64,000 nucleotides of DNA from Candidatus Paceibacter sp. (GTDB taxonomy: Bacteria > Patescibacteriota > Minisyncoccia > UBA6257 > JAGOQP01). This document shows positions 42,165-61,419 of this stretch, one piece after another. The stretch is taken from NCBI GenBank assembly GCA_020724905.1, contig DYGB01000002.1:29425-93424 (forward strand), in the 5' to 3' direction. A program made the position numbers and the translations under genes. The notes under the pieces were generated by a model. It made no database searches. It was not told the origin of the DNA and saw only the letters and a list, made by a program, of their open reading frames with translations. Each line of letters starts with the position of its first letter. Position 1 is the stretch's first letter.

Positions 42165-42167
42165 TTT

Positions 42168-42689: not shown

Positions 42690-42767
42690 AGTTAATGTAA
42701 TTGTTCTATTTTTATGCTTTCTCTTTAGTTTTTTTGAACATACTTTTCTTTGTGTAGCTTTTATCGT

Positions 42768-43175: not shown

Positions 43176-43192
43176 TCTAACTTTTAAAGTCG

Positions 43193-43750: not shown

Positions 43751-43796
43751 ACGTTTAAATTATACCATAAAATTTTACCTAAATAATATGCATACA

Positions 43797-43828
43797 AATA
43801 AAAAGCCGCTCAGATAATCTTGAGCGGC
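43797..43828 (-). terminator. rho-independent terminator (minus strand)
   Basis: GCCGCTCA-gataatct-TGAGCGGC hairpin followed on the minus strand by a T-run. Confidence 0.6.
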
Positions 43829-43838
43829 GACAAGCTTT

Positions 43839-44366
43839 TTATTGTAAACATAAGAAAAAATGAACTTCTACAGAAGATGCATTAACAGTGGCGTAATGAA
43901 ATCTAAATTCTGCAATACCTTTAAAGAATTTGTTGATTTCTTTCAGCATTTTAAAAATTTCTTTTCCACTTTTCTTTCCTTTCGGATTAAAGTGAAAGTG
44001 AAAAATTGGAATGTCAATGTAAGTTCCTTGGGAGTCATTCCAGAACTCATTATAGTCTGAGGCAGTACCATTAAATGGATCTACATAACTACGAATGAAT
44101 AGTTCCAATAGTCGTTTTGTTTTTCCATCTTGACGAGATTTAAATCTCTTATTCAGGAATGCTCGATGTTTTTTGTATCTCTTCGTTTTGGGAATAAGTG
44201 AAAAGAGATGTCTTATTAGCTTTTTAAGCATTCTCTCTTGAGTGTCTGCGATTTTCACCAAGAACGGTTTTGCACGTTCTTGGTTTTCCTTTATTTTACC
44301 CATTTCTTCTGAAAGTATATCTTTGAAAAATGGATTTTTTTCAGGAATATAGATAAGACGGTTCAT
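43839..44366 (-). CDS. hypothetical basic protein
   Basis: 175 aa, Lys/Arg-rich; no family recognised. Confidence 0.4.
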   Translation of the reverse strand: MNRLIYIPEKNPFFKDILSEEMGKIKENQERAKPFLVKIADTQERMLKKLIRHLFSLIPKTKRYKKHRAFLNKRFKSRQDGKTKRLLELFIRSYVDPFNGTASDYNEFWNDSQGTYIDIPIFHFHFNPKGKKSGKEIFKMLKEINKFFKGIAEFRFHYATVNASSVEVHFFLCLQ

Positions 44367-44736
44367 TCTTATTTCTCCTATGAAGTTGTCAAATACTAGC
44401 TAAAAATAGGATAACATACACAGCAGTATCTGTAAAGGACAAGGAATTTATTTTTCTAAGAACTTTCTTTGGGTTGGCTCTATTTGGCTGGGTTTTTCGT
44501 ATTAGAACTTTATATCTTATCCGCATGTTGAGGATATTTTTCTCTCAGTTTTTCTTTTTCTTCTTGAGAGAGTGACCTAAGTTTAAGACGTCCTCCAATA
44601 TGCTCTGGAAGAGTGAGGTTCTCCGCTGAGGTGAGGGAGTGAAAAGTAAGTATGCCCCCAACCTCCCTTGGGAGCCGTTGGAGAATTTGAAGAGTAGGTT
44701 GATGTTGTTGGATAAGAAGATAATGCTAACTGATTG

Positions 44737-45786
44737 TTAGTTTATCCATATATCAATATTAAGTTTCTGATTAGTAACTTTTTCAAAATAAGTTGCAGCA
44801 ATCGCTATCCCAACAGCACTCAACTGTAACTTATTCATTAAAGTTTTACTAAAGGAGTCAAAAATTTTACTACCTGATTTTGTTTTATTTTTTAAATCTT
44901 CCTCAACTTGCGCTGTAGACGGAATCATTTTTCCGTAAATATCTTTTAATTCTTTCTTGTCTTCTTCACTAAAATTATTCTTATCTAAATAATCTTCTAG
45001 AACTTTTTGGTTTTGTGTTTTTATTACTAAATAATCATCTTCGTTTGTGGTAATAAGCGCTTTTGCTTCATTGGATAGTTTTAATTGATCAATCTTATCT
45101 TTCTCTAATCCTCTCATAAAAGGTAGCGTATAGTTCTTTTGAAAAATCTGAATAAGATTCCTGCTTAAAGCAGAAGATGATGCACATCTTGTATATTCTA
45201 AATATTGAAACTGAGAATTAGTTAAAGATGTTCCAAGAAAAGGAGTCACCATAGTTTCAAGAAAATTATCAAAATCAGCAATAGTATTTACTGGACTATT
45301 TAACGCATATAAACATATAAAAACCATAGCAAGTATATTCAGATGATCTTTAGTCAATTTGTCTGCGGTTTCGATGGACTCGTTAAAAACAATTCTTTTG
45401 ATATCTTCCTTGTCATTAGAAATTCTTTTACCCAAAAGAATGGCGAGGTTCTCATGCAATTCAACTGAGTCACTTCTGCTAGCTGCTAGTGCCGCTTTTT
45501 TAGTGATAAATTGAAAATCTGGACTGTTAATTACACTTTTTACTTCTTCCACATCAGACATGTAAGATTTTAGTTTGTCTTTTAATGCCTCGAGGAAAGA
45601 AGATTGATTTTCTGCGATTTTATCTTTTACAGGTTGGGGCAACTCTCCAAAAACTGAGCTCAGTAATTCTTTGGATAAATCTTCCACAGAACCCACTGTT
45701 AAATTAACTGTCTGATTCACAGCTATGGAATCCGCTTGAATATTAGTGGAATTATCTCTCGTCTTTTGTTTCTTTATCTCTGACAT
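44737..45786 (-). CDS. hypothetical protein (349 aa, helical; N-terminal segment repeats the tail of the upstream small TM protein)
   Basis: Long ORF overlapping the upstream 66-aa TM gene by 35 nt; no catalytic motif recognised. Confidence 0.5.
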   Translation of the reverse strand: MSEIKKQKTRDNSTNIQADSIAVNQTVNLTVGSVEDLSKELLSSVFGELPQPVKDKIAENQSSFLEALKDKLKSYMSDVEEVKSVINSPDFQFITKKAALAASRSDSVELHENLAILLGKRISNDKEDIKRIVFNESIETADKLTKDHLNILAMVFICLYALNSPVNTIADFDNFLETMVTPFLGTSLTNSQFQYLEYTRCASSSALSRNLIQIFQKNYTLPFMRGLEKDKIDQLKLSNEAKALITTNEDDYLVIKTQNQKVLEDYLDKNNFSEEDKKELKDIYGKMIPSTAQVEEDLKNKTKSGSKIFDSFSKTLMNKLQLSAVGIAIAATYFEKVTNQKLNIDIWIN

Positions 45787-45952
45787 TTATATTTAAATTA
45801 TCACTTTGTATGTTTATACTGTTATTTCTACTCCTTTGCTTTTTTATTATTTTATTACCACCCCAAAATAACGTGGCAAATCCAATTAATATACCAACTA
45901 GCGTAAGAAATCCTCCTGCAGTTTTTATATATAAAATTAAATCATCAAACAT
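45752..45952 (-). CDS. hypothetical single-pass membrane protein (66 aa)
   Basis: One TM helix then a basic/Asn-rich tail KKQRSRNNSINIQSDNLNIN. Confidence 0.45.
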   Translation of the reverse strand: MFDDLILYIKTAGGFLTLVGILIGFATLFWGGNKIIKKQRSRNNSINIQSDNLNINVRDKETKDER

Positions 45953-46083
45953 CGTAGTTTTTATATTTTATCAAAAAACTGCCCAGTTGGACAGTTTTTT
46001 GTCTGGCTACAGCTCTCAGCTTATATGCAGTGTCAGAATAGGTTCTTGGGCACACGACCCTCTCAGGTCACTGTGTTTGAAGA

Positions 46084-46107
46084 TACTGGCGTTTCCGTGT
46101 TAGAACT
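46084..46107 (+). repeat. degenerate copy of the tRNA-Gln 3' end (att-like direct repeat B)
   Basis: TACTGGCGTTTCCGTGTTAGAACT matches repeat A at 19/24 and the tRNA-Gln 3' end in the same orientation. Confidence 0.5.
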
Positions 46108-46190
46108 TCTAAGCCATCTGTGGATAAGTGCCTACACTTTCGGTTTCTATTCGTTTATAATATAATTATAGTTAAATAATATTTATAACA

Positions 46191-47762
46191 ATGTCTACTC
46201 TTACAAAAAAACAAAAACAAGTCTTTGATTTTATAAAGAGTTATACATCGGAAAATGGTATCTCCCCTACTATAGAAGAAATCCGTAAAGGATTAAAACT
46301 GAAGGCTGTTTCTACAGTACATGAACATATAAAAACTCTTGAGGTAAAAGGGTTTATTTCAAGAGATGATGATTTTTCTAGGAACTTAAGCATAAAAAAG
46401 AACATTATATCTGTGGTACATATTCCTATCCTTGGTCATATAGCTGCGGGCCAACCAATTGAGGCTATAGAAGATTTTCAGGACACCGTATCTATTGTTG
46501 ATTCAAGAATAAAGAGTTCTGAAGGATATTATGCCCTAAGGGTTGTTGGTAATAGTATGATCGATGAAGGAATTTTTGATGGAGATATTGTTGTTATTAA
46601 AAGACAGTCCGTTGCTGACAATGGACAAACTGTTGTTGCGATAATTGATGAAAATGAGGCAACTCTTAAGAAATTATATAAGGAAAGAAGACGTTTTAGA
46701 TTAGAGCCAAGAAATCCTAATATGGAACCTTTATTTAGAACCCATGTGGAGGTTCGAGGAGTTGTAGTAAAAGTTATTAGTAATATTCAAGATGAAGTTG
46801 AGACAATTGCGAAAACAAAACACGGATTTAGAACATTGGATTTGTTTGCAGGTGTTGGGGGTATACGAATAGGTTTTGAAAATGCGGGGTTTAAAACTGT
46901 ATTTGCAAATGATTTTGAAGAAAAATGTGAATATACGTATAACCTAAATTTTAAAAAAACAAAGCTGGTGGTTGAGGACATAAGGAAAATAGGAATTGAT
47001 GATTTGCCAGAATTTGATTTTTTGTTGGGTGGATTCCCCTGCCAAGCCTTTTCCATCGCAGGTTATAGAGAAGGTTTTAATGATAAAAAAGATCGAGGCA
47101 ATTTATTTTTTGATATAGCAAGGATTATTAAAGCCAAAAGACCCGAAGGATTCTTACTTGAGAATGTTAAGAATTTAAAAAGCCATGATCAAGGAAGAAC
47201 TTTTGAGGTTATAGAAAAAACTTTAAAGGATCTCGGATATCATATTCATACAAAGGTTTTAAACACTATGGAGTATGGGAATATTCCTCAAAATAGAGAA
47301 AGAATTTATATAGTTGGATTTAAAAATAAGAACTATTTCGATAGATTTGAATTCCCCAAACCAATCAAATTAACAAAGAAGGTTGTTGACTTATTAGAGA
47401 AGGATGTTCCTGAAAAATATTACTATAATAACAAACCTCTTTACGAAAGAATAAAAAACGATGTGAAAGATAAAAACAAAGTATATCAATGGAGAAGAAA
47501 GTATGTCAGAGAAAATAAAAGTGGCGTATGTCCCACATTAACAGCAAATATGGGAATGGGTGGACACAATGTTCCAATAATTAGGGATAATAAAGGAATA
47601 CGGAAACTTACTCCATTAGAATGCTTTAGGCTCCAAGGCTTTCCTGAGGATTATAAACTTCCTAATGTTGCTGATTCTGTTTTATATAAGCAAGCTGGTA
47701 ATTCCGTTAGTGTTCCGGTTGTAGAAGCTATAGCGAAACAAATAAAAAAAATTATGAAGTAA
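46191..47762 (+). CDS. LexA repressor (wHTH + S24 autopeptidase) fused in-frame to a DNA cytosine-5 methyltransferase
   Basis: Residues 1-200 align along the whole E. coli LexA (LTKKQKQVFDFI; cleavage site IAAGQP; LRVVGNSM Ser; TVVAIIDENEATLKKLYK Lys). Residues ~205-523 carry C5-MTase motifs I DLFAGVGG, IV GFPCQAFS, VI ENV, VIII QNRERIYIVGF, X GNSV. The ORF is continuous. Confidence 0.8.
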   Translation: MSTLTKKQKQVFDFIKSYTSENGISPTIEEIRKGLKLKAVSTVHEHIKTLEVKGFISRDDDFSRNLSIKKNIISVVHIPILGHIAAGQPIEAIEDFQDTVSIVDSRIKSSEGYYALRVVGNSMIDEGIFDGDIVVIKRQSVADNGQTVVAIIDENEATLKKLYKERRRFRLEPRNPNMEPLFRTHVEVRGVVVKVISNIQDEVETIAKTKHGFRTLDLFAGVGGIRIGFENAGFKTVFANDFEEKCEYTYNLNFKKTKLVVEDIRKIGIDDLPEFDFLLGGFPCQAFSIAGYREGFNDKKDRGNLFFDIARIIKAKRPEGFLLENVKNLKSHDQGRTFEVIEKTLKDLGYHIHTKVLNTMEYGNIPQNRERIYIVGFKNKNYFDRFEFPKPIKLTKKVVDLLEKDVPEKYYYNNKPLYERIKNDVKDKNKVYQWRRKYVRENKSGVCPTLTANMGMGGHNVPIIRDNKGIRKLTPLECFRLQGFPEDYKLPNVADSVLYKQAGNSVSVPVVEAIAKQIKKIMK

Positions 47763-47768
47763 GTTTTT

Positions 47769-48818
47769 CTATTTTTCTGTTTTATAGAATTTATCAAACT
47801 CTTTGATCATTTTATTCGTAGAATCTTTAGCAAATATCTCAAAAGAGTTCTTTATCGCTAGATTCTCATTCCAACTTGAGCTTCTTTTAAATTCTGAAAG
47901 CTCTACTCTTACATAACCTGGGGACACCTTCTTTCCGTTAATAGAAATAGACCTTGGGGTTTTTAAATAAAAAGACCCTTTGTTTTGTTTAATGATTGTA
48001 ACTTCTTTTAAATTACCTTCAATAGCAATTGGTAAAAATTTAGAGTCACGAAAATTATAAGTGAATTTCTTGTTCTCCACTCTTATAGGTTTGCTTTTCC
48101 CTGCCCTTACTACTTTATTTACATTTGAGACACTTTTTACATACCATGGGCTAACCTTTGGCTTACAGGATATAGTATGTTCCAAAATTTGGTTTTTAGT
48201 GTATGTACCTATTAATCTGAAACTTCCTATGGTTTTTGCTGGATGGGGTTCTTCTGGATTTATAATGTTTGAATTCTTATCTGATTTTATAAAGATGGGG
48301 TTAATCTTTAGTAAGTCTAAATTTTTTGGATTAAAAACTTCTTTATCAAAAATAGTAGTTAAATAATCTGGGGATAGATCAGATTCAACGAAAACATAGA
48401 AATCATCAATCATTTGTGGTTGCCTGACTCCCATTAAGTATTGTCCTTTTCTAAATACTTTAACTTCTACTCGAGGACGTTTTTTTATAGTTTCCCATTT
48501 CCCATCGTTGTATTGAACAAAAGGGATTATTCTTCTCTTATCCTTTATCCCAATAACATCTGGCGCATTTTTTTCTGATGAATTGTTGTACAAGAAATAA
48601 TCAGGAATAACACTATATGGTTTATCTTTAAAAAGAACGTCAAAAACGACAGTTTCAGCAAGCTTATTAAGCCACCGTTCGATAAATCCTCCGATTAAAT
48701 CTCTTTTAGAGGAAGTCCCTTGGAGATGAAGTGAATCGGAGTTATATTTCATTAATATGAAATATATTGTTCTAATCAGTTCTTCTTTTGTTACTTCTAT
48801 TTTGGGATATTTACTCAT
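47769..48818 (-). CDS. putative Type II restriction endonuclease (PD-(D/E)xK-like), cognate to the adjacent C5-MTase
   Basis: 349-aa ORF convergent and 6 nt from the MTase stop; PDVIGIKDKR...VEVKVFRK resembles a D...ExK core; no other family. Confidence 0.5.
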   Translation of the reverse strand: MSKYPKIEVTKEELIRTIYFILMKYNSDSLHLQGTSSKRDLIGGFIERWLNKLAETVVFDVLFKDKPYSVIPDYFLYNNSSEKNAPDVIGIKDKRRIIPFVQYNDGKWETIKKRPRVEVKVFRKGQYLMGVRQPQMIDDFYVFVESDLSPDYLTTIFDKEVFNPKNLDLLKINPIFIKSDKNSNIINPEEPHPAKTIGSFRLIGTYTKNQILEHTISCKPKVSPWYVKSVSNVNKVVRAGKSKPIRVENKKFTYNFRDSKFLPIAIEGNLKEVTIIKQNKGSFYLKTPRSISINGKKVSPGYVRVELSEFKRSSSWNENLAIKNSFEIFAKDSTNKMIKEFDKFYKTEK

Positions 48819-49064
48819 TAAGATAGAGCATATACCCTTATTGACATAAAATCAATTTAGCAGTAAAGAATCACCTTCTTTAAAGTATGCATGGGCAGTA
48901 TAAATGACTTGCTTCCGTTTTGTTTTACGTACTCATATTAAACCTATTCTATCTTTAACAAGCTCTAGGGGTTGTAAATTAGTTTGTCCGTTCGGAATTA
49001 TTTGAGTGGTAAACAAATTATCCCTTCCCTAATTCATATTACCATTAATAAAACCAGCAACAGT

Positions 49065-49529
49065 TTATGTTTCTTCTATGATTTTTTTAACAACTTTTTT
49101 GGATATGTTTAATAAGGGGCTGAGATTCAACCAGTATTTTCCATCTTCGCGTTGAGAAAGTATCTCTAATTCACCAAAACCAATTCTTAGTCCAATCCCA
49201 ATTTCCATGTAACTATTATGAGTAAGTTTGTTCCTATATCCATTTCTTAGTGTTTCGACTTGGTCATTTGAAAGACTCAGATTGTAGTAACTAGGATCAT
49301 TCAAAATTTGGAAATGTGTCTTTGTATCATTCCCACCTCCTTTTATAATACTACCAATATTGTCTACTATTGAAAGAAGAATTAACGCCGATGGATATCC
49401 ATAACATCCAGTATATCCATTCCAGCGAGGATCGGAAGATTTATCAAAATTTATACAATATTCCGCAACTTCAATCAGCTCTTTTAGAGCTTCCTTCTGC
49501 ATCTCTGACTTTGATAAATGAAGTGCCAT
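49065..49529 (-). CDS. hypothetical protein
   Basis: Start placed at Met 49529. The longer track ORF (to 49649) is read-through across the tRNA-Gln gene. Confidence 0.45.
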   Translation of the reverse strand: MALHLSKSEMQKEALKELIEVAEYCINFDKSSDPRWNGYTGCYGYPSALILLSIVDNIGSIIKGGGNDTKTHFQILNDPSYYNLSLSNDQVETLRNGYRNKLTHNSYMEIGIGLRIGFGELEILSQREDGKYWLNLSPLLNISKKVVKKIIEET

Positions 49530-49567
49530 ATTAACGTATCTCGTGTAGGATTGTTCCTTGCACGACT

Positions 49568-49641
49568 TGGCTGCCGGACTAGGATTCGAACCTAGATACC
49601 ATGCTCCAGAGGCATGTGTCCTGCCATTAGACGATCCGGCA
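49568..49641 (-). tRNA. tRNA-Gln (anticodon CUG), CCA encoded
   Basis: Cloverleaf: acceptor UGCCGGA/UCCGGCA with U1:A72 and G73 (GlnRS identity elements), D-stem GUCU/GGAC, anticodon stem CAUGC/GCAUG with loop CUCUGGA, T-arm CUAGG-UUCGAAU-CCUAG. Confidence 0.85.
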
Positions 49642-49694
49642 AAATACAAAGCTTATTGTAATGAAAATACTTCTATTATGCAATTATCTTATAT

Positions 49695-50627
49695 TTAGAG
49701 AATTGAAAATGTGGTGTAGGGAGAAACTATCTTTCCTATACTACATTCACATTTCTTAACCATTGATGAATGAGGGCCTTTTTCTACATTTGGAAGAAAA
49801 TATTGTATCGCTTCTTTTTCTCCCTGTGCACAAATAGAGACACTTCCATCATTGTTATTTCTAACAAATCCTTTGAGGTTATATTGTTGAGCTCTTTTTT
49901 CTATGAAACGTCTCATTCCAACACCTTGTACAATTCCTTCTAGATGAGCTGATAGTTCCAAAGGATCATTAAGAAATTCTTCTAGGGAAAGTGACCTTTC
50001 TATAGTGTAGTCTCCTATAGCTGTTCTTGTAAGAGCAGAGAGATATCCTTTAGATGAAAGTCTTTCTCCTAGATCTCTTGCCAAACTCCTCACATAGAAT
50101 CCTGAAGATACAAAGATATCAAGTATAAGTGTATAGGTCTCGTCTTCATTCTTTTGAAGAGATTGTATGGTATATGAATAAAAAGATACTATACGAGGCT
50201 GAGGTGATACTTCTTTCCCTTCTCGAGCTTTTTTATATGCAGCCACACCTCCCCTCTTTATTGCTGAGTATATAGGAGGTATCTGTTGTGTCTGATCTTT
50301 AAGACGTTCAAGCTCTCTTTGTATATCTTTTTTATCTATAGGAGGCACCTTTGTATCTTTGATAACTGTTCCTGTTATATCGTCAGTATCTGATGAGGCT
50401 CCAATACATATATGAGCTCTGTATGACTTATCTTTTCCTCGTAGGATAGTATCTAGTTGTTTTGTGTATTCTCTCCCTATCCCCACCATCAATACTCCTT
50501 CTGCGAATGGATCAAGTGTTCCTCCATGTCCTATCCTTTCCTTTGTTTTGAGTTCTCTTTGAATACTACGTAAAAACCCAGCAGAGCTAGGGCCTTTGGG
50601 TTTGTTCATGATAAAAAGACCACGCAT
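49695..50627 (-). CDS. truB: tRNA pseudouridine(55) synthase TruB fused to a C-terminal acylphosphatase-like domain
   Basis: TruB catalytic motif GHGGTLDP; the C-terminal 85 aa carry both acylphosphatase signatures (IVQGVGMRRF; GFVRNNNDGSV) in place of the usual PUA domain. Confidence 0.8.
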   Translation of the reverse strand: MRGLFIMNKPKGPSSAGFLRSIQRELKTKERIGHGGTLDPFAEGVLMVGIGREYTKQLDTILRGKDKSYRAHICIGASSDTDDITGTVIKDTKVPPIDKKDIQRELERLKDQTQQIPPIYSAIKRGGVAAYKKAREGKEVSPQPRIVSFYSYTIQSLQKNEDETYTLILDIFVSSGFYVRSLARDLGERLSSKGYLSALTRTAIGDYTIERSLSLEEFLNDPLELSAHLEGIVQGVGMRRFIEKRAQQYNLKGFVRNNNDGSVSICAQGEKEAIQYFLPNVEKGPHSSMVKKCECSIGKIVSPYTTFSIL

Positions 50628-50694
50628 AGTATATATAGTGTATCAGATTTATATCAAAGAATATAAAAACCCCCTCGTCTGAGGGGGTTTTAAA

Positions 50695-51606
50695 CTAGTT
50701 TGCCTTAAGATACTTCCCTATCGCGATAAAACTTGATATGAGCCCCAAGATACTTCCAAAGAGTAACTGATAGATAAGGAGTGTTGGGAGATGATCAGTG
50801 AAATAGACCCAGAGATCTAGTTCTGGAACAAGAACATTGCTGTATGGAGAAATAAGGTAAATAAGAGGAGCAATAATGAGTAAACTGATAACAGCAGCAA
50901 GGATACCATAGATAATTCCTTCAATAAGGAATGGACCCCTAATAAAGAAGTTAGATCCCCCTACAAGTCGCATAATCATGATACTATCCTTACTTGAATA
51001 GATAGCAAGACGAATGGTATTAAAGGTAATTAAAACAGCAATAAGAGCCATAAAGATAGTAAGAGCAAATCCTCCCTGTTCTGCAATATTAAGGATAGTA
51101 TTGAGCCTTTCTATCACGGTAGCATTCTGACCATAGGTAACTCGCTCTGTATACTGTTTAATGGACTCATTCTCAAGATAAGCTGCAATTTGTGCATACT
51201 GCTCTGAGTCTTGTGCCTTAATATTAAGAGATGCAAGAAGAGGGTTTTCGCTTAACTGTTGGAGAGCCTGAGAAATTGTTTCATCATCTCCATGTCGTTC
51301 TTTAAAGATCTCAAGTGCTTGATCTTTTGATATATACTGCGTTGCTTTTACTTCTTCAAGTTCTTGTACTGAAGTTTGAATACGAAGAATTTCATCTTCT
51401 GGGGTATCTGCGGTAAAGAAGATACTAATATCAATTTTATCTTGAATATTTTCAATAATAGTTGTAGTGGTCACATTGAAAATATTAAGTCCCGCAAAGA
51501 CTGAAAGTGCGAGCACCATGACTAAGATAGTTGCCGTTGAAAGCCATACATTTCGTTTGAAATGTTGAAAGGCATATTTGATAAGACGTATACCGGTAGT
51601 AATCAT
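50695..51606 (-). CDS. ftsX: cell-division ABC transporter permease FtsX
   Basis: N-terminal TM, periplasmic domain, C-terminal 3-TM FtsX-like permease region. Confidence 0.8.
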   Translation of the reverse strand: MITTGIRLIKYAFQHFKRNVWLSTATILVMVLALSVFAGLNIFNVTTTTIIENIQDKIDISIFFTADTPEDEILRIQTSVQELEEVKATQYISKDQALEIFKERHGDDETISQALQQLSENPLLASLNIKAQDSEQYAQIAAYLENESIKQYTERVTYGQNATVIERLNTILNIAEQGGFALTIFMALIAVLITFNTIRLAIYSSKDSIMIMRLVGGSNFFIRGPFLIEGIIYGILAAVISLLIIAPLIYLISPYSNVLVPELDLWVYFTDHLPTLLIYQLLFGSILGLISSFIAIGKYLKAN

Positions 51607-51609
51607 AAA

Positions 51610-52302
51610 TTAAGCAAGTATATATTTTCCCTTTTCCTCATCGCGTATAATCTTTCCATCTTCAAGACTAATAACACGACGAGCAATACTATTAATGACA
51701 TCTCTATTATGTGTCGCAAGAATAATTGTTGTCCCCAGTTCGTTAATCTTTAATAACAGGTTTAAAATTTCATCAGTATTAACTGGATCAAGGTTTCCTG
51801 TTGGCTCATCAGCGATAATAACATCAGGATTATTAATCATTGCTCGTGCAATAGCGATACGTTGTTTTTCTCCTCCTGATATTTCTCGAGGGAAGTTATC
51901 TGTCTTACTTCCAAGTCCTACAATTTCAAGTGCTTTTGGAACGAGCTCATCAATTTCATTCTGTGGACGTCCTGCTACTTCAAGAGCAAAGGCAACGTTT
52001 TCATATGCTGTCTTTTCAGGAAGTAATTTAAAGTCTTGGAATACCGTTCCAATATGACGCCTCATCTTGTAGAGCTCATTTTCTTTTAAACGATTTACTT
52101 CATAGGAACCAAATACAACACGACCCTTACTTGGTCGTTCTTCTCCAATGAGGAGTTTTATAATCGTTGATTTCCCTGCTCCTGATTTACCCACCAGCGA
52201 GACAAACTCTTTCGGGTTGATCTTGAAACTGACATCCTCAAGAGCAACTGACTTTCGTTTATTTCCTTTATATATCTTGCTGACGTTCTGAAAAATAATC
52301 AT
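51610..52302 (-). CDS. ftsE: cell-division ABC transporter ATPase FtsE
   Basis: Walker A GKSGAGKST, signature LSGGEKQRIAIARA, Walker B IIADEPTGNLD. Confidence 0.9.
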   Translation of the reverse strand: MIIFQNVSKIYKGNKRKSVALEDVSFKINPKEFVSLVGKSGAGKSTIIKLLIGEERPSKGRVVFGSYEVNRLKENELYKMRRHIGTVFQDFKLLPEKTAYENVAFALEVAGRPQNEIDELVPKALEIVGLGSKTDNFPREISGGEKQRIAIARAMINNPDVIIADEPTGNLDPVNTDEILNLLLKINELGTTIILATHNRDVINSIARRVISLEDGKIIRDEEKGKYILA

Positions 52303-52362
52303 ATACAGGTATAAGTATAGTACATTTAGCGTATAAAAAGAAGAGAGGTGTGGATAATTTTT

Positions 52363-53445
52363 TTATTTCGTTTCTTGGCGAAAATGAGTAAGCTCGGCTT
52401 CTATAAATCCATCTAAATCCCCTCCTTCAAGTACCGGTTCTACCGTTCGTGTTTCATGATCTGTACGATGATCTTTTATTAATTTATAGGGGTTAAGTAC
52501 GTATGAACGAATCTGGCTCCCCCATTCTGGCTTTGCATTACTCTTCAGGTCATCAAGTTTTTCAACACGTTGTTGTTCCATAAAGTTAACGAGTTTTGCT
52601 TCAAGAACACGGAGTGCTCGTTCCCTATTAGCGCTCTGTGATCGTTCTGCTTGTGAGGCTGCACTGATACCGGTAGGGATATGTACAATACGAACAGCTG
52701 TTTCTACCTTGTTAACGTTTTGTCCTCCAGGACCAGATGATCGAGAAAACTCTACTTTAATATCATCATCTTTAATATCAAGTGTTGGTTCATCAAACTG
52801 AGGTAATACATCAACAAGAGCAAATGATGTATGACGCAATTGTTGTGATGAGAAAGGTGAGACACGAACTAATCGATGCACTCCTGACTCATACTTGAGA
52901 TACCCAAATGCATATGCTCCTGCAACTTCAAAGGTAATATGTTTAAGAGGTTTTCGTCCTGTTTTTGATTGAAACGATTCTTCAGTGATATCAATAACAA
53001 CAACGTTCCATTTTTTTCTTTGTGCCTAGGCACTATACATCTCATAGAGCATATGTACCCAATCAGCTGCATCATCTCCTCCTGCACCTGCAGAGATAGA
53101 AATAATTGCATTCTTTTTATCATAGGGCCCTAAGAACAGTTGTTCCCGTTCTAGTTCTTTTACATCTTTTTTTATCACCGCCAAAAGATCTTCATCATGT
53201 GTTTCTTTTAATTTCTTGAGACCTTCAAGAACTTCAGTATAGGTTGTGATACATCCTTGAAGTTCTCCCAGTTCTTTGAGGGTTGGTTCAACTCCTTCAC
53301 GATCTTTCCAGATATCAGGGTCTTGAAGAAGGAACTCTATCTCTTGTATTCGTTGTTTTTTCTTCTCAATAGCAAGATACTCTTCTAAATATGAGAGTTT
53401 ATCTTCTATATCACCTACGAATTGTTCGTATTCTTTTTCTATCAT
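52363..53445 (-). CDS. prfB: peptide chain release factor 2, single reading frame interrupted by one in-frame TAG at 53026-53028; no canonical +1 frameshift site
   Basis: N-part and C-part (GGQ motif SGPGGQNVNKVETAVR) are in the same frame; translation across the TAG gives ...EMYSA*AQRKKWNVVVIDITE... colinear with E. coli ...ERMYLRWAESRGFKTEIIE... Confidence 0.8.
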
Positions 53446-53450
53446 ATATG

Positions 53451-53523
53451 AGCCAGCGAGAGGATTTGAACCCCCAACCTCTCCCTTACGAAGGGATTGC
53501 TCTACCATTAAAGCTACGCTGGC
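53451..53523 (-). tRNA. tRNA-Thr (anticodon CGU)
   Basis: Acceptor GCCAGCG/CGCUGGC, D-arm GCUU/GAGC, anticodon stem-loop AUCCC-UUCGUAA-GGGAG, T-arm GGGGG-UUCAAAU-CCUCU, discriminator U. Confidence 0.85.
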
Positions 53524-53636
53524 AGAAACATCAATAGGATAGCATATATCGTATGTTTCGTTCTATTGACCAAATATATATTATATTGTATTCTCTTGGC
53601 AAGAGTATATTAACAATTTAAAAAGGAGGAATTCTC

Positions 53637-54185
53637 ATGGCACCGTTTATCTATGATAAAAAGACAAACAAAAGTATTATGAAATTGACGCTTGTCTTTG
53701 TAGTAATACTTATCGTATTTTTCTTTGTATTTAGGTACGTCCTTTTTCCAAATGATGATTCTTACAATCCGATAGATACAACATATCTAACTTCATTTGA
53801 AAATTTTGCGTTTGACATTAATGCATATTTCTATGGGGATATGTGTATTGTCCGATCAATAGAGGCGTATCACCCTTCACACTATACCTTTGTTTCTGCG
53901 CAGTACCATTTCTATCCGTTAGTTTCATCAGATGGAAGTATTGTCTACAGGCTCTATGACAGCAATGCCCGTGGTTCAGATAATACCTCCTACATGATCA
54001 TCACATTTTATGATGAGAAGCAACATGTAGAGAGGAGTATTATCATGAGCATGGAAGACGTGCTTGATTTCTCTCCTCAAGAAATGGGTCTTCCTATACA
54101 AGTGGAAGATAAATCATTTTCTATCCATAGGGCATACCTTGAGCCTGGTGGGGAGATAGTTTTTAGAATGAACTCCTTAGAATAA
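53637..54185 (+). CDS. hypothetical membrane-anchored protein
   Basis: 182 aa, N-terminal TM helix, GGAGG RBS, terminator downstream. Confidence 0.5.
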   Translation: MAPFIYDKKTNKSIMKLTLVFVVILIVFFFVFRYVLFPNDDSYNPIDTTYLTSFENFAFDINAYFYGDMCIVRSIEAYHPSHYTFVSAQYHFYPLVSSDGSIVYRLYDSNARGSDNTSYMIITFYDEKQHVERSIIMSMEDVLDFSPQEMGLPIQVEDKSFSIHRAYLEPGGEIVFRMNSLE

Positions 54186-54195
54186 TAAAAGTGAA

Positions 54196-54221
54196 AGGAC
54201 ATCGTGTGATGTCCTTTTTTT
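54196..54221. terminator. bidirectional rho-independent terminator
   Basis: AGGACAT-cgtgtg-ATGTCCT followed by TTTTTTT. Confidence 0.65.
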
Positions 54222-56475
54222 ATGCTCTTAATCGTCTCATAATCCCCTCCTCTATCTCTTTGTATGTCTTGGTATGTTTTTGTAGGGCATAGTCATAGAG
54301 ACGCTGAGCAGCATCTTTATCAGATGGTCTGTAGGGAAGGGTCTCAATACTAAAGGGTTCGGTTACCTTTCCATGATTTAACATCTTTACATAGGCGTGG
54401 AATGCGTTGAGGTTTCCAATATCATGAGCACTAAAGATAGGGTCAAATTCTTTTTCAAGTACTTGAGCATCTTCATTTCCTGTACGAAATACAATCATAG
54501 ATCCAACGTTTCCAAAAACTGCTTTTTTGATATCTTCATCAAGTTGTCCAATAAATTGATGTGCAATGGTAAGGTTTAGTTTGTACTTTCGTGCTTCAGA
54601 GAGAATGGTAGCGATACCATCAGTTGCAACATTATGAAATTCATCGATAAAGAGATTAAAATCAGTTCTTTTTTCAAATGGTATATCTCCTCGTGAAAAT
54701 GCTCCCAAAACCAACTTTCCAATCACTAACATTCCAAGGAGTGCTGCATTCATTTCTCCCAACTTTCCTTTACTGAGATTAACCAGGATAATCTTGTTTT
54801 CATCCATGGCCTTTCTAAATTGAATAGATGAAACTTCTTGTCCGATAATAGGGCGGATAAAGTCATTAGCGATAAATCCATTAAACTTAGAGGTAATATA
54901 GGGGGTAATATTTGCAAGTGACCCTTCTCCTCCAGCTTTTGCAACTTCTTTTGTCCAAAAATCAATAACAACAGGGTTTGTGATTCGTGCTAGTTTTCTC
55001 TGTCTAAATTCAGCATCGGTAAAGACACGAGGAACCTCTATTAATGTTGCTGGTTCATTAACACTATCTTCCAAGAGCAATAGAAGTGCATTGCGCATAT
55101 ACTGTTCAAACATAGGACCCATAGTTTCCTGTGAGAACAGCCTGTTAAAAATGCTTTGAATTTCATTAACGATAAAGGTCTTTTGTTCAGGATGAGCTGG
55201 ATCATATTCAAGCATGTTAATCCCCACAGGATGCTCGAGGTATGAGGGGTCAATGATAATAAGGTCATCTTTTCGTTTTTCTGGAATACATCCTGCAATA
55301 TGTTCAACAAGATCTCCATGAGGATCAATAACACAGACTCCTTTCCCGCGCTCTATATCTTGTGAGGCCAATTGTGTTAAAAGACCTGACTTTCCTGTAC
55401 CTGTTTGCCCGATAATGTAGAGATGACGAGAACGATCCTCATCACTGATATAGATGGGTTTACTTTCTCCACGAGCAGAGCTTTCTCCAATACAGAGTCC
55501 TGAGGTAGGAAGGTTAAGAGGAATGTTACTTTTCTTTGAGGTGACCCATTGTACTGTTGGGCTCAGGGTATCTGCGGTAGGGAAATGAAAGAGGCTTGCA
55601 AGTTCTTCAGTATTAAGAATCATTCCTTTTTTCTCATTGAATTGTCTAAATACAGTGTCATATGCCAATGTTTTAAGAGATCGTTCCTTTTGAATTGAAA
55701 GAAGAGGTCCTTCTGAGGTGGTAAACTGAGAAAATGATTCTGAAATATCATTAAAGATACTTTCTGTTTGAAAATCATTATCAGTTGAAACAATAATACG
55801 AGCATTAACCCAAAGAAGTGGTTTTTTAGCTTTCTTTTGAATATCTTCTTTTGGAGCGATGGTGGTATTTTCCGTTTCTTCTTCATCTGCTTTTTTCTTT
55901 TTCTTTAAGTATGAACGGAGCTGTTTTTTGTATGAGTCAGGAGCTTTTTTAATTAAAAATTGTATGACAACTCCTTCTCCAATGTGTTGAATCTTTGAGA
56001 GTGTGGTAATAATAGGGGCAAAGGTGTCTCGATCCATATCTTTGTAGGTATCGAGAGGAAATGAAAAATGTTTTGTTTGTTGAATATACCCTCCTTTGTG
56101 TACTCCTTCATGTTGGAAAATATTATATTCAGGAACATCTTGAATCTGAATTCCTGGGAAGAGTCCTTCTAGTTCACGTTGGATAAAGGCATGTTTCTCT
56201 TCTGGAAGAGAAAGATAGAAGTTAAGTTCTTCTCCAATATGATGTACTGCAATCTCACATGAAAGGGGTTGGGAGAATTGAGTAAGTGTTGAGAAAAAGT
56301 GTTCTGTTTTTTCAATTGCACTTCTGTCTTCCTGCCTGGGAAGACGAACAAGAAGCAACGTTCGTTTTAATGATTTTTGTATTCTTTGAAGTCGTACTCT
56401 TCGTGCAACAAAAAATATTCCTATACCGATGACGATAAGGAGAATAATTCCTGAACTAATAATAAGTGCGTCCAT
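54220..56475 (-). CDS. TraD/VirD4-like type IV coupling-protein-family ATPase (membrane-anchored)
   Basis: N-terminal TM; Walker A YIIGQTGTGKSG, Walker B LFIDEFHNV; C-terminal ARKYKLNLTIAHQFIGQL...FRTGNEDAQ typical of TrwB/TraD-type DNA-binding ATPases. Confidence 0.55.
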   Translation of the reverse strand: MDALIISSGIILLIVIGIGIFFVARRVRLQRIQKSLKRTLLLVRLPRQEDRSAIEKTEHFFSTLTQFSQPLSCEIAVHHIGEELNFYLSLPEEKHAFIQRELEGLFPGIQIQDVPEYNIFQHEGVHKGGYIQQTKHFSFPLDTYKDMDRDTFAPIITTLSKIQHIGEGVVIQFLIKKAPDSYKKQLRSYLKKKKKADEEETENTTIAPKEDIQKKAKKPLLWVNARIIVSTDNDFQTESIFNDISESFSQFTTSEGPLLSIQKERSLKTLAYDTVFRQFNEKKGMILNTEELASLFHFPTADTLSPTVQWVTSKKSNIPLNLPTSGLCIGESSARGESKPIYISDEDRSRHLYIIGQTGTGKSGLLTQLASQDIERGKGVCVIDPHGDLVEHIAGCIPEKRKDDLIIIDPSYLEHPVGINMLEYDPAHPEQKTFIVNEIQSIFNRLFSQETMGPMFEQYMRNALLLLLEDSVNEPATLIEVPRVFTDAEFRQRKLARITNPVVIDFWTKEVAKAGGEGSLANITPYITSKFNGFIANDFIRPIIGQEVSSIQFRKAMDENKIILVNLSKGKLGEMNAALLGMLVIGKLVLGAFSRGDIPFEKRTDFNLFIDEFHNVATDGIATILSEARKYKLNLTIAHQFIGQLDEDIKKAVFGNVGSMIVFRTGNEDAQVLEKEFDPIFSAHDIGNLNAFHAYVKMLNHGKVTEPFSIETLPYRPSDKDAAQRLYDYALQKHTKTYKEIEEGIMRRLRA

Positions 56476-56478
56476 GAA

Positions 56479-56844
56479 CTAAAGAAGTCCTTTACGTTTC
56501 ATTTCTTCGTGAAGTTTCTCGACAAGTGCATCATGGTACATATCAAGAATAAAAGGATCTTTTTTCTTTGCTTCCCTGATTCCTTCAAGAAGTCCTTTTT
56601 CAAATGTGTGATTGATAAGGGTGGTCACTTCTTTCTTTACTTCTTCTGAGGCATCAGCTGCATAGGAAGGAAGTGAGTCGTTTGTTTTTCTCTGTTGGTC
56701 TTCTTCTGTTTGGGAGGTATAGTGAGTATGGATGACCTGTTTGAGGGCAGGAATATGGTTGTTTTCTACCTGTTCATGCTGTTCAAATGTTTGTTGAACT
56801 TCTTTTGTTTCTTGAGCAAGTTTTTCGTAGTTGATACTATCCAT
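56479..56844 (-). CDS. hypothetical protein (co-operonic with the TraD-like ATPase)
   Basis: 121-aa acidic helical ORF, 3-nt gap to the downstream gene. Confidence 0.4.
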   Translation of the reverse strand: MDSINYEKLAQETKEVQQTFEQHEQVENNHIPALKQVIHTHYTSQTEEDQQRKTNDSLPSYAADASEEVKKEVTTLINHTFEKGLLEGIREAKKKDPFILDMYHDALVEKLHEEMKRKGLL

Positions 56845-56846
56845 AT

Positions 56847-58280
56847 ATGAAAGATAAAAAGAATATGAAATTGTATATTCTTGGTATTGTTCTGATTATA
56901 TCAGCGTTCTTTTTCTTTTACAATTTAGATACGCTTCCTCCTGGACTCTATATTGATGAGGCTATGAATGGACTCGATGCACAATCAGGAGAGTTAAAAG
57001 TAGTGTATCCAGAAAATGGAGGGCGTGAGGGGCTCTTTATTATTCTTCAATCACTTGTTCTTAGTATCGTTGGGATAGTAGAGCCATGGGTACTTCGCAT
57101 GGTGAGTGGCATTATTGGACTAGTGGGTATTGGAGGAATGTTTTTCTTCCTCTCAAGACTCTTCTATCGTATTGAGAAGAAATATCATTACTGGTGGGCT
57201 GGGATAGGGTCTGCGCTACTTGGTATGAGTCTGTGGTATAGCATTCTTTCTCGTGTAGGGTTTCGAGCCCTTCTGTCTTCAACTATTCTTATTTGGACAC
57301 TTGTACTTCTTGAAAAAGCAGTTGATAAAAAACATCCATGGTTATATATCATTGCTGGTGTCATAGGGGGAATAGGGATGTATTCGTATAGTGCATATTA
57401 TATCACTCCTTTTATTTTTCTATTGTATCTGTGGGTAGAAAAACAGATAGCACAAGAATCGTTTAGGTTCTTTATAAAACAGGTGTGGTACTTTGTTTCT
57501 TCTTTTGTTGTGGTGAGTATTCCTCTCTTTATTTCTCTTTCTTCTGTTTCTCGTTTTAATGAAGTATCTGTTTTTTCTCAAGAGAGTCCTTTTCTTCGTA
57601 TTATAGAAAACATTATTAAAACAGGAGGTATGTTGTTTTTTAAGGGAGATATGAATGCACGGCATAATATTCCTGGTCTTGCACAACTCTCTCCCCTTCT
57701 TGGTATCTTTTTTATTGGTATGCTTGTCTACTACATTCTTGCTCGTACAGGAAAAAAGCGATCATTTCTCATTTCATATACTCCGTTTCTTTTCGGATGG
57801 ATTATTCTTGCTTCCCTTCCCGCTCTATTTTCATCAGAGGGACTTCCTCATGCTTTGCGTAGTGTATTGATGCTTATCCCAAGTGTGATACTGAGTGTTT
57901 TTGGAATCTATGTCGTATACACCTTTCTGAAGAAACGATTTTCTTTTCGTACAGTAGTACTTGGAGGAGGGATACTCTTTTTTGTGTTTAGTATCTCTCA
58001 GGGATTTCTCTTGTTTGGTGTGTGGGGAACATCTTCTGATACGTGGAATGCATTTAGTTCTGATGTGTTAGAAACAGCATATGCGATAGAAACGATTGAT
58101 GCCTCTATTCCTGTGTATGTTGTTGTGTATCGAAACCCTGACCAGCTGTACAAAGAAATACCACGTTCTGTAACCCCTCTTGCATTTATGAACCCCAAGA
58201 GAGATATCATATACGTGTATGATGATACTGATATTCCTTCTGGGGCCGCAGTCTTTTATGTTGGAGAGAAGGAATTATAA
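56847..58280 (+). CDS. GT-C fold glycosyltransferase (GT39/ArnT-PMT-like)
   Basis: N-terminal TM then the YIDEAMNG loop motif (DE) and multi-TM topology. Confidence 0.55.
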   Translation: MKDKKNMKLYILGIVLIISAFFFFYNLDTLPPGLYIDEAMNGLDAQSGELKVVYPENGGREGLFIILQSLVLSIVGIVEPWVLRMVSGIIGLVGIGGMFFFLSRLFYRIEKKYHYWWAGIGSALLGMSLWYSILSRVGFRALLSSTILIWTLVLLEKAVDKKHPWLYIIAGVIGGIGMYSYSAYYITPFIFLLYLWVEKQIAQESFRFFIKQVWYFVSSFVVVSIPLFISLSSVSRFNEVSVFSQESPFLRIIENIIKTGGMLFFKGDMNARHNIPGLAQLSPLLGIFFIGMLVYYILARTGKKRSFLISYTPFLFGWIILASLPALFSSEGLPHALRSVLMLIPSVILSVFGIYVVYTFLKKRFSFRTVVLGGGILFFVFSISQGFLLFGVWGTSSDTWNAFSSDVLETAYAIETIDASIPVYVVVYRNPDQLYKEIPRSVTPLAFMNPKRDIIYVYDDTDIPSGAAVFYVGEKEL

Positions 58281-58356
58281 AGGAGCTTTTTGAATTTTTA
58301 GAGAAAATGTTTTAGGCTTAGAGTATCGGTTCATTAATAATATAAGGGGGTTAGCT

Positions 58357-58749
58357 ATGACACTCTCATCAATCAGTGAAAAGATACGAGACTGGTCTTT
58401 TTATAGTCTTATTGGTTTTCTGTTGTGGAGCCTTGTTCTTATTAGCGCACTTCATTCAACAATGATTTCCTTGGTACTGGTCATTGCCAGTTTGTGTGTT
58501 ATAAATCGGTATTTTTCTCATTCATTGCATGGAATGATTATCCGAACAGGCATGGGAACAATTCTCTTCTTTGTTGCATTTATGTATGGTGGTCTTAAGC
58601 AGTTTCCCAAAGACTTTTCTTTACTTCTTATGATGTATGCATTTAGCATACTTATTGCTATCGTGTTTTCCTATATCATCGTAAAACATTCACTTGAAAA
58701 GGATGATGCTACTGATTCAGATCATTCTTCTCCCCCTCTCTTGTATTAA
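58357..58749 (+). CDS. hypothetical membrane protein
   Basis: 130 aa, 4 predicted TM helices, GGGG RBS-like upstream. Confidence 0.45.
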   Translation: MTLSSISEKIRDWSFYSLIGFLLWSLVLISALHSTMISLVLVIASLCVINRYFSHSLHGMIIRTGMGTILFFVAFMYGGLKQFPKDFSLLLMMYAFSILIAIVFSYIIVKHSLEKDDATDSDHSSPPLLY

Positions 58750-58778
58750 AAAGGGAGCTTTTTAAAAGCTCCCTTTTC
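58748..58778. terminator. bidirectional terminator (perfect palindrome AAAAGGGAGCTTTTTAAAAGCTCCCTTTT)
   Basis: GC-clamped stem flanked by A-run and T-run, between convergent genes. Confidence 0.65.
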
Positions 58779-59789
58779 TTATCCATGACGAATGACCATA
58801 ACATCTCCATCCTGTACCACATATTCTTTTCCTTCAATACGGAGCTTTCCTTTTTGTTTTGCGCTTCCCCATCCTCCTGCTGCGACAAAATCATCATAGG
58901 CGACGACTTCAGCACGGATAAATTTGTCTTCAAAATCAGTATGAATGGTACCTGCTGCTTGTGGAGCTTTACTCCCCTTCTCAATTGTCCAGGCACGGGT
59001 TTCATCTTCTCCGGTGGTGAAAAAGCTAATGAGGTTAAGAATAGCATAGGCCTTGGTAATAACATCAGAAATATCAGTGGTGAGAGAAAGATCAAGGATA
59101 ATGTATGTTGCATTGAGTGATGCTATCTTTTCTTTTGTTTCATCAGATACATCTTGCTCTGATCCATTTAAAATAAAGATCTGAGGTTTTGCCGTTAAAA
59201 GATTGAGTTCTTTAAGGGGTTCGGTTTCAAGTTCTTCATGGGTATAGACCATGTATGGCATCGTTTCTTTTTCCAAGACGTCTTTTACATGACGAAGTGC
59301 ATCAAGTTCTTTTTTCTTTGCCTTATCTCCAGTACGTGCTTCTCCTTCTACCTTGTTGAGGCGTTTCTCAACGAGTTCAAGGTCTTTGAGGATAAGTTCA
59401 TGGTTAATGGTATCAATATCACGAGCAGGATGAGGACTTTGTTCAACGTGCGTAATATCACTATTTTCAAAACAGCGTACGACATGTGCTATCGCATGTA
59501 CTTCTTTTATATGAGAAAGAAATTGATTCCCCAGCCCCTGTCCTGTACTTGCTCCTCGTACCAGTCCCGCAATATCATAGAATTCAACAATGGCAGGGAT
59601 AGTTTTTTTAGATTCACTGAGTTGGGTAAGGGTTTGGAGGCGTGAATCAGGGACTTCAACGATCCCTACATTAGGGTCTATTGTTGCAAAGGGATAGTTT
59701 GCGATATGGATATCTTGACGTGTGAGCGACTTAAAGAGTGTTGACTTTCCTACGTTAGGAAGTCCCACAATACCAACAGAGAGTTTCAT
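58779..59789 (-). CDS. ychF: ribosome-binding ATPase YchF (Obg-like)
   Basis: G1 GIVGLPNVGKST, YPFATIDPN, C-terminal TGS domain. Confidence 0.9.
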   Translation of the reverse strand: MKLSVGIVGLPNVGKSTLFKSLTRQDIHIANYPFATIDPNVGIVEVPDSRLQTLTQLSESKKTIPAIVEFYDIAGLVRGASTGQGLGNQFLSHIKEVHAIAHVVRCFENSDITHVEQSPHPARDIDTINHELILKDLELVEKRLNKVEGEARTGDKAKKKELDALRHVKDVLEKETMPYMVYTHEELETEPLKELNLLTAKPQIFILNGSEQDVSDETKEKIASLNATYIILDLSLTTDISDVITKAYAILNLISFFTTGEDETRAWTIEKGSKAPQAAGTIHTDFEDKFIRAEVVAYDDFVAAGGWGSAKQKGKLRIEGKEYVVQDGDVMVIRHG

Positions 59790-59791
59790 AG

Positions 59792-61024
59792 TTATTTATA
59801 TTGAATAGTGAAGAAATGCTTTTTCCCTAGACGCATTGTCCCTTGAGGAAGTTCATCAAATGGTTCCAGGGATTGTTCGTCTGGTTCTATCATACGTATT
59901 CCTCCTTCAAGTGCAAGGCGTTTTATTTCACTCTTGCTGAAGGCAAGATCTTTGCGAGATGCGATAAATTCAATAACGGTTGTTCCTTTTTCTACCTGAT
60001 AGACTGTAACATCAGAAAAATCTTGTTGTGAGAATGTTTTTTCAAATGATTCACGTTCTTTGTGTGCTGTTTGCTCTGATCCTGTTGTGATATAGACAAG
60101 AAACATTCCAAGAATCTTTTTCATTTCAAGAGGATCTTGTTGTATGAGTTCTTGTATCTCTTCTATCTCTGAGGTACGAATATCAGCAAATGAGATGAGG
60201 TATGAGAGAATAAGGGTATCGGGGATAGAAAGAATCTTTCCAAAGATATCTTGTGGTGAGGCATGTAGAGAGATATAGTTTTCTAGACTTTTACTCATTT
60301 TAGCTCCATCTCCATGAATTCCTTCAAGGACAGGGGTAGTCAGAGCAACTTCAGGTGTGAGTCCGTGAAGTTTCATAAGGTCTCGTGCTTGGGCAAAGTT
60401 AAGGAGTTGATCTCGTCCTCCTATTTCAATATCTGGTTTAATCTCAAGAGAGTCTACTCCTTGAGCGTATGCGTAGAGGAGTTCGGCGATACTTAACGGA
60501 TGTCCTGTTTCAATACGTTTTCTAAAGTCATCTCGTTGCAATACTTCTGAGATGGAGATGTGTTGCAGATCAGAGAGAATACTTTCAAAAGAATGTTTTT
60601 TTAACCATTTCTTGTTGTGATGAATTTTTGTCTTTCTCACATTAATAAATGGTCGTATCTGTGAAAGATACGTTTTTTTGTTTTTCTCTATTTCTTTTTC
60701 AGAAAGAAGTGTTCTTTCTGATGTTCTCCCACTTGGGTCTCCAATGCGAGCGGTAAAATCTCCAATAACAAAATGAATGGCATGTCCTGCCCTTTGAAAG
60801 AGCCGTAAGATCATAATAGGAAGAAGATGACCAAGGTGAATATCAGGACCAGTTGGGTCAATACCAAATTTCACTACAAGCTTGTCTTTTTTCAGTGCTT
60901 TTTGAAGTTCTTCTTGAGTGATAACTTGATCTATCTTTGGTGCAAGTACATCGTACAATTCACCAGGTGCAAGTGGTGCTGTGTAACGCTCTTTTAATTC
61001 TGTGAATAGTGTCTCTTTGTTCAT
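59792..61024 (-). CDS. tyrS: tyrosyl-tRNA synthetase
   Basis: HIGH-type HLGHLL, IGDPSGRTSER, KMSKS (GAKMSKS), C-terminal S4-like domain. Confidence 0.85.
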   Translation of the reverse strand: MNKETLFTELKERYTAPLAPGELYDVLAPKIDQVITQEELQKALKKDKLVVKFGIDPTGPDIHLGHLLPIMILRLFQRAGHAIHFVIGDFTARIGDPSGRTSERTLLSEKEIEKNKKTYLSQIRPFINVRKTKIHHNKKWLKKHSFESILSDLQHISISEVLQRDDFRKRIETGHPLSIAELLYAYAQGVDSLEIKPDIEIGGRDQLLNFAQARDLMKLHGLTPEVALTTPVLEGIHGDGAKMSKSLENYISLHASPQDIFGKILSIPDTLILSYLISFADIRTSEIEEIQELIQQDPLEMKKILGMFLVYITTGSEQTAHKERESFEKTFSQQDFSDVTVYQVEKGTTVIEFIASRKDLAFSKSEIKRLALEGGIRMIEPDEQSLEPFDELPQGTMRLGKKHFFTIQYK

Positions 61025-61419
61025 ATAGATGAGAGTGCTTCTTCTATTTCTTGTACCATCATATCAGGAAGTGGTTGTGATGGTTTTGTTTTTCCAGGAT
61101 ATCTCCATGCAGAGATAATGACAATAGTGCTATCTTTTTTTGTTTGGTACATAACCCATATCTCTTGATTCCATGTACGTTTTCCATTCTTTTGTTTATA
61201 TGATGAGGGTTGCATTGCAGCCTGGGTTCCTTCTGCTATTCCCTCCTCTCTTCTGAGGGGTGTTTTTATAACTCGTCGTATTCTACTCTCTGAAAGTTTA
61301 TAGTAATGGATCTTTCCTTGTGCGTGTCGTGTCCATTGATATTTCCTTTGTGAGAGTATGTCAGTTTGAGCCTTCCCCATAACATGTATTATAATATAGC
61401 AGACACTATATGTATACAC
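61021..61419 (-). CDS. hypothetical protein
   Basis: 132-aa ORF overlapping the tyrS start by 4 nt; start uncertain. Confidence 0.35.
   Translation of the reverse strand: MYTYSVCYIIIHVMGKAQTDILSQRKYQWTRHAQGKIHYYKLSESRIRRVIKTPLRREEGIAEGTQAAMQPSSYKQKNGKRTWNQEIWVMYQTKKDSTIVIISAWRYPGKTKPSQPLPDMMVQEIEEALSSI

Follow-up and report, generated by a model that had tools for sequence, protein, structure and literature searches.

The gene for RF2 (peptide chain release factor 2), prfB, is interrupted by a lone TAG in the stretch of DNA analysed here, a 64-kb section (hereafter the window) of a 142,901-bp contig deposited at NCBI. This raises the question of whether the stop codon is a regulatory device, a sign of gene decay or of an altered genetic code, a genuine allele, or an error of the assembly. 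The first-pass annotation had pointed to a single in-frame TAG at 53026–53028 in an otherwise colinear RF2 and had remarked that the canonical +1 frameshift site is missing; it left the choice between a sequencing or strain-level error, a fresh pseudogene, and programmed UAG readthrough, by which the production of RF2 would hinge on RF1. Translation of 53445..52363 confirmed the stop codon, giving a colinear RF2 of 360 codons in which the only internal stop lies between DWVHMLYEMYSA and AQRKKWNVVVIDI. A tblastn search with the repaired RF2 protein returned one HSP of 360 residues that crosses the TAG, and the two halves of the gene, including the GGQ motif, thus lie in one frame, as had been claimed.

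For the profile scan against NCBIfam, the stop at codon 140 was first replaced by a residue. The product scored 371.4 bits with the prfB model TIGR00020, above the cut-off of 370, whereas the RF1 models gave 230–233 bits and remained under their own cut-offs. Pfam identified the PCRF (PF03462) and RF-1 (PF00472) domains. The sequence also contains the GGQ motif and an SPF tripeptide, the marker of RF2-type stop recognition (Table 1). The TIGR00020 score, the two domains and the two motifs together point to a bona fide RF2. The same tblastn search found no prfA paralogue in the 64-kb window. Because of the TAG, the mechanical list of open reading frames splits prfB into 53026..53508 and 52363..52881, both in the same frame, and the NCBI record of the deposited contig likewise carries the halves as P0121 and P0123.

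Table 1. Features of the prfB locus and stretches of other assemblies that match the window, in window coordinates.
Feature	Position	Strand	Details
prfB (peptide chain release factor 2)	52363..53445	minus	360 codons plus TAA; one internal TAG in the deposited assembly; assigned from translation, TIGR00020 and Pfam
Stretch homologous to the +1 frameshift site of prfB	53350..53379	minus	TAT CTT GCT ATT GAG AAG AAA AAA CAA CGA = YLAIEKKKQR
In-frame TAG, codon 140	53028..53026	minus	Variable base 53026: here C (plus)/G (minus), elsewhere A (plus)/T (minus) = TAT, Tyr
12-nt perfect palindrome GTGCCTAGGCAC	53022..53033		Only with the window allele; contains CCTAGG
Break point in sibling assemblies	53009..53014		Ga0246236_1000152 and Logan SRR5011275_97775 end at 53009; Ga0246236_1000228 starts at 53014
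SPF tripeptide (RF2-type stop-codon recognition motif)	52852..52860	minus	Residue 196
GGQ motif (peptidyl-tRNA hydrolysis)	52720..52728	minus	Residue 240; 3' of the TAG, frame unchanged
tRNA-Thr(CGT)	53450..53523	minus	ARAGORN, Rfam; 3' end separated by 4 nt from the start codon of prfB; no suppressor
ftsE	51610-52302	minus	Pfam; directly downstream of prfB
ftsX	50695-51606	minus	Pfam; after ftsE
JGI scaffold Ga0246236_1000152	18899-40884, 41610-53009		100% identical
JGI scaffold Ga0246236_1000152	1503-24105		Identical apart from a gap of 10 Ns near 3424 and the lack of a 14-nt segment (14498-14511)
JGI scaffold Ga0246236_1000228 (L004)	53014-64000		Sole mismatch in 10,987 bp at 53026, TAT
Logan SRR5011275	4852-14508, 53478-59670		Identical
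Logan SRR34333129	6735-11520		Identical
Logan SRR34333129 contig L001 (3,286 bp)	54484..51199		Sole mismatch at 53026, TAT

The gene order prfB-ftsE-ftsX is kept in the window and was also found in a relative (L026). On the upstream side, the spacing of 4 nt between tRNA-Thr(CGT) and prfB is too short for a separate promoter or Shine–Dalgarno (SD) sequence, and gene callers ran the prfB frame through the tRNA, which yielded the 381-residue P0001 and the 411-residue P0122. Upstream of prfB, another relative (L002) has different genes, including one for an HflX-like GTPase, so that synteny breaks at the boundary between tRNA-Thr and prfB.

The TAG had been placed at the position of a tryptophan in E. 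coli RF2 and explained as a TGG to TAG transition. The position is correct in part: codon 140 aligns with tryptophan in the first two RF2 chains from the PDB, which we take to include the E. coli/Bacillus-type enzyme, whereas the third chain, presumably that of Thermus, has phenylalanine. The transition itself is contradicted by the codon found elsewhere: two further assemblies of this population have TAT, as does a relative of ~90% identity (L002, NPIE01033551.1). Comparison with prfB in relatives, which the first-pass annotation had proposed as a check, revealed no TAG: among the 121 closest homologues, this column holds tyrosine in 84 and phenylalanine in 37, with neither tryptophan nor a stop in any. 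Because TAT is present in the sibling assemblies and in the relative, and the homologues have only tyrosine or phenylalanine, the ancestral codon 140 is TAT (Tyr), not TGG (Trp), and the change from TAT to TAG is a third-position T to G transversion (A to C on the plus strand at 53026). The reading frame that is interrupted in the window is open in Logan SRR34333129 and at the end of the JGI scaffold, where codon 140 is TAT. The corresponding Logan protein (P0001, 381 residues) is identical to the window RF2 except for tyrosine at codon 140; its additional 21 residues come from the gene caller, which ran the frame on into the tRNA upstream. The annotation of this locus should be corrected to an intact RF2 of 360 residues carrying Tyr140.

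The sibling assemblies used in this comparison were JGI metagenome 3300029893 and Logan SRR5011275 and SRR34333129, which were fetched via neighbouring proteins and cover ~60 kb of the window. Across this length, we identified exactly one base substitution, at 53026. This base is covered by two of the sibling assemblies (JGI scaffold Ga0246236_1000228 and Logan SRR34333129), and both have TAT. The JGI call, 12 nt from the end of its scaffold, is itself weakly supported; the Logan call lies mid-contig. The only other differences between the window and the JGI assembly are a gap of 10 Ns and an indel of 14 nt, and these are lesions of the assembly type, not scattered strain SNPs. At the N-gap, around 3424 (TGNNNNNNNNNN), the window is continuous. 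The 14-nt segment missing from JGI is TCAAGAAAGGAGGA, contains the SD-like AAGGAGGA and is located just 5' of the gene for peptide deformylase; here, the Logan SRR5011275 contig matches the window and stops inside the segment at 14508.

The position of the odd base relative to the ends of the sibling contigs provides further information on its origin. JGI scaffold Ga0246236_1000152 ends 17 nt away from base 53026, and Ga0246236_1000228 ends 12 nt away from it. In Logan contig SRR5011275_97775 (22,843 bp), ftsE occupies positions 708–1400, which places the end of this contig at exactly 53009, and two independent assemblers therefore stopped at the same base. The two JGI scaffolds are separated by 4 nt and do not overlap. 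The deposited contig bridges the spot, where read support was evidently poor because two other assemblies terminate 12–17 nt away. Together with the N-gap and the 14-nt indel, this break, with the odd base 12 nt inside it, makes up the three assembly-type lesions at which the deposited contig departs from the JGI assembly. A strain SNP arising at random would have no reason to fall at such a break, unlike an error in the consensus of a bridged stretch with thin coverage.

These observations bear on the alternative that the TAG is a real strain-level nonsense allele, TAT to TAG, carried by a sub-population or by the sampled clone, which would be recent and probably deleterious. The neighbouring breaks could in principle stem from heterogeneity among the reads. 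However, a gap of 4 nt without overlap suggests that read support or coverage was lost locally and does not resemble a SNP bubble, as judged from the behaviour of assemblers: at k = 31, a contig broken off by a SNP at 53026 would have its end at 53025 instead of 53009. We rejected a SNP bubble as the cause of the breaks on the grounds that 53009 and 53014 do not adjoin 53026 and that the JGI scaffolds are non-overlapping. The TAG does stand in the public deposit, where it separates P0121 from P0123, but it is the sole substitution in ~60 kb, it is located at an assembly break, and both assemblies that cover the base have TAT. We consider a real nonsense allele possible but rather unlikely.

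Taking the direct observations together (the identity of the gene, TAT in the other assemblies and the co-location of the odd base with the assembly breaks), we infer that the TAG at codon 140 is probably a consensus or joining error in the deposited assembly and not a rare real allele. The error option of the first-pass annotation is thus the one that we favour, with a single substitution in ~60 kb, TAT in both covering assemblies and a break 12–17 nt away. According to this model, the functional prfB allele would have TAT (Tyr) at codon 140 and would be an ordinary frameshift-less gene of an uncultured Paceibacterota (Patescibacteria/CPR). The change of A to C at plus-strand position 53026 would be specific to the deposited assembly, introduced when a poorly supported gap was bridged. 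RF2 would simply be translated from a reading frame without interruption, with no autoregulation by +1 frameshifting, and the TAG would regulate nothing.

Sequence-specific Illumina errors have been documented as a source of false SNPs and of gaps in assemblies (PMC3141275). The odd base, C at 53026, is the same as the preceding base on the plus strand, and A to C (T to G) is a frequent type of Illumina miscall, which is consistent with an error without proving one. The GGC-triggered error model of the same study fits poorly, with no GGC upstream of 53026 in either read direction. The fits to an Illumina error are limited to the error type (A to C, repeating the preceding base) and to the quasi-palindrome described below. 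If the deposited contig was polished with reads, the majority of the reads in the sample may carry C, and this would count against an error.

The window allele also completes a perfect palindrome of 12 nt at this site. With TAT, the same stretch reads GTGCATAGGCAC, a quasi-palindrome with one mismatch, and perfect palindromes through the site reach 4 nt at most. Single-base changes that create a palindrome of at least 12 nt through the changed site make up 0.38% of all those possible in the window, a proportion to be read with the fact that the palindrome was noticed post hoc. The palindrome hints at a templated event such as template switching, whether in vivo or while the library was being prepared. 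For a real nonsense allele, it provides some support, as perfecting a palindrome is what templated mutations do, and quasi-palindrome template switching may have produced such an allele. Correction of quasi-palindromes through template switching is known both in vivo and in vitro, and the palindrome for this reason leaves the choice between an error and a real allele unsettled.

The first-pass annotation had also considered a fresh pseudogene in a genome in which UGA termination is dispensable, and this reading is not supported by the window. Apart from the TAG, prfB contains no lesion, and codon 140 is its only difference from the intact allele. The dN/dS ratio between the window gene and its ~90%-identical relative is 0.066 (0.098 upstream of the TAG and 0.029 downstream). 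Based on the single lesion and this ratio, prfB has evolved under strong purifying selection and is not a decaying pseudogene. The stops of the 66 open reading frames in the window are TAA in 48, TAG in 14 (the internal one of prfB included, which leaves 13 others) and TGA in four, three of the latter in ATGA start/stop overlaps (1798–1801, 36266–36269 and 61021–61024). UGA is read by RF2 alone among release factors. As TGA still terminates four reading frames, RF2 should still be needed, and this also argues against a real nonsense allele, even if the scarcity of TGA stops (4/66) might make a partial loss of RF2 less costly than usual.

A genome-wide change of the code would have either TAG read as sense or UGA reassigned, the latter allowing prfB to decay. 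RF2 has been lost in bacteria that reassigned UGA (codes 4 and 25), namely Mycoplasmatota and Gracilibacteria/Absconditabacteria. Gracilibacteria and Absconditabacteria belong to related CPR lineages and use UGA as glycine, and the window resembles these bacteria in its CPR kinship, its low GC content and the rarity of TGA, its least-used stop. It differs from them in that TGA terminates genes, and prfB, with a single lesion, is under strong purifying selection and is intact in other assemblies. The gene map of the window is dense under translation table 11, and reading TAG or TGA as sense merges no real genes. A search for in-frame TAGs in other genes, suggested in the first-pass annotation as a sign of recoding, was run on the window and found no other TAG-split gene; the other places where one TAG separates two long open stretches read as distinct adjacent genes or as non-coding extension. 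With this structure of reading frames, and with 13 TAG and four TGA terminators, we rejected a code with TAG or TGA as sense for the window, and we regard a change of the genetic code as the least credible of the explanations considered here.

The third option, programmed readthrough or suppression of UAG, would tie RF2 synthesis to RF1 in a new circuit that replaces the +1 frameshift, and it takes its appeal only from the coincidence of an absent frameshift site and an RF1-specific stop in the same gene. The absence of the site, as the first-pass annotation had described, is borne out: YLAIEKKKQR is read straight through. We identified no in-frame TGA, CTTTGAC or SD-like element at 53379..53350, and the codons around this position (GAA GAG TAT CTT GCT ATT GAG) do not form the +1 motif. 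The homologues P0002–P0018 (58–63% identity) are frameshift-less too, mostly of ~358 residues and in most cases with complete N-termini, as are those in L009 and L010. Two species representatives of Paceibacterota each gave a single tblastn segment that starts at residue 1. Many rather more distant homologues have gene calls truncated at the N-terminus, and the only one of these checked at the DNA level, P0019 (62% identity, with prfB, ftsE and ftsX in the order of the window), contains a canonical site (...CTAGGAGGCTGG CTT TGA CGT GGA AAA...). In relative L026, the aligned position reads AGGAGGCTGG CTT TGA C. With frameshift-less closest homologues and a canonical site in P0019, the phylum therefore has both states.

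In a survey of more than 12,000 genomes, the prfB motif was present in 8,164 and was judged to have been lost in several lineages (PMC12421855). The absence of the frameshift in the window gene is real, but it is common to the closest relatives and such lineage losses are on record, which makes it ordinary for the clade and unremarkable. Frameshift-less genes of the survey, found in Actinomycetota, Thermotogota, Mycoplasmatota and scattered others, resemble that of the window in having no SD-like element, CTTT run or in-frame TGA (PMC12421855). Loss of the motif was associated with high TGA usage in that study. The lineage of the window has lost the frameshift with few TGA stops (4/66), unlike this trend, in a 64-kb sample that is too small for the departure to be judged or interpreted. 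With canonical E. coli-type +1 frameshifting, the window gene shares its family, and the prfB-ftsE-ftsX neighbourhood is shared with the motif-bearing Paceibacterota relative of 62% identity. In contrast to the canonical arrangement, the window gene has none of the motif elements, and its sole stop is the TAG at codon 140, with the same frame on both sides and no slippery sequence.

The evidence against programmed readthrough is found in the distribution of the stop, which is absent from the otherwise identical assemblies, from the ~90%-identical relative and from all 121 homologues, and the closest frameshift-less relatives have a plain open prfB. ARAGORN and Rfam identified only tRNA-Gln(CTG) and tRNA-Thr(CGT) in the 64-kb window, and no suppressor tRNA(CUA) among them. 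In the large prfB survey, TAG was not detected in the role of premature stop within the frameshift motif, and no comparable device was reported (PMC12421855). Programmed readthrough is effectively refuted because the stop is not conserved, and as an explanation of this locus, we hold it to be highly improbable. Taking programmed and code-related readings together, we allow them very little probability.

Among the close precedents in the literature are the 34 prfA "pseudogenes" with premature stops in single records, which the authors of the survey judged unlikely to be programmed (PMC12421855). In these cases, as in the window prfB, a factor essential for termination is cut short by a stop that is seen in one record only and at an unconserved position. 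They differ in that the prfA cases are described as requiring a frameshift for production of RF1, whereas the window gene is a prfB with an in-frame stop and can be compared with sibling assemblies. Before a lone nonsense codon in an essential gene of a metagenome-assembled genome is interpreted, sibling assemblies and the positions of contig joins should be consulted. A TAG that was real and maintained would represent either a new control of RF2 through RF1 or a population that is losing UGA termination, and would matter for the evolution of the genetic code. There is a slim chance that a real TAG allele is present at appreciable frequency in this UGA-poor Paceibacterota, with inactivation of RF2 as a first step towards UGA reassignment of the kind known from Gracilibacteria and Absconditabacteria. 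Such an allele might be tolerated via low-level near-cognate readthrough of UAG.

Several other regions of the window are of separate interest. Between 32000 and 52000, GC content falls from ~0.39 to 0.32–0.35, the GC skew changes, and there are many short reading frames without Pfam matches; this region may be a genomic island. It contains a 523-residue fusion of a LexA DNA-binding domain, a peptidase S24 and a DNA methylase (46191–47762), as well as a Vpar_1526-family protein (44737–45786). On the other side of prfB, the region 54220–56844 contains a 751-residue ATPase of the DUF8128/DUF87 type with weak similarity to TraG/TrwB. Ahead of the ATPase, and in frame with it, is a 121-residue open reading frame, the TAG of which lies two codons before the ATG of the ATPase. 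On the minus strand, a 194-residue reading frame with a TTG start (49065–49649) overlaps tRNA-Gln(CTG) at 49568–49641; the JGI annotation calls a gene of 154 residues here, and at least the 5' part of the longer frame is likely spurious.
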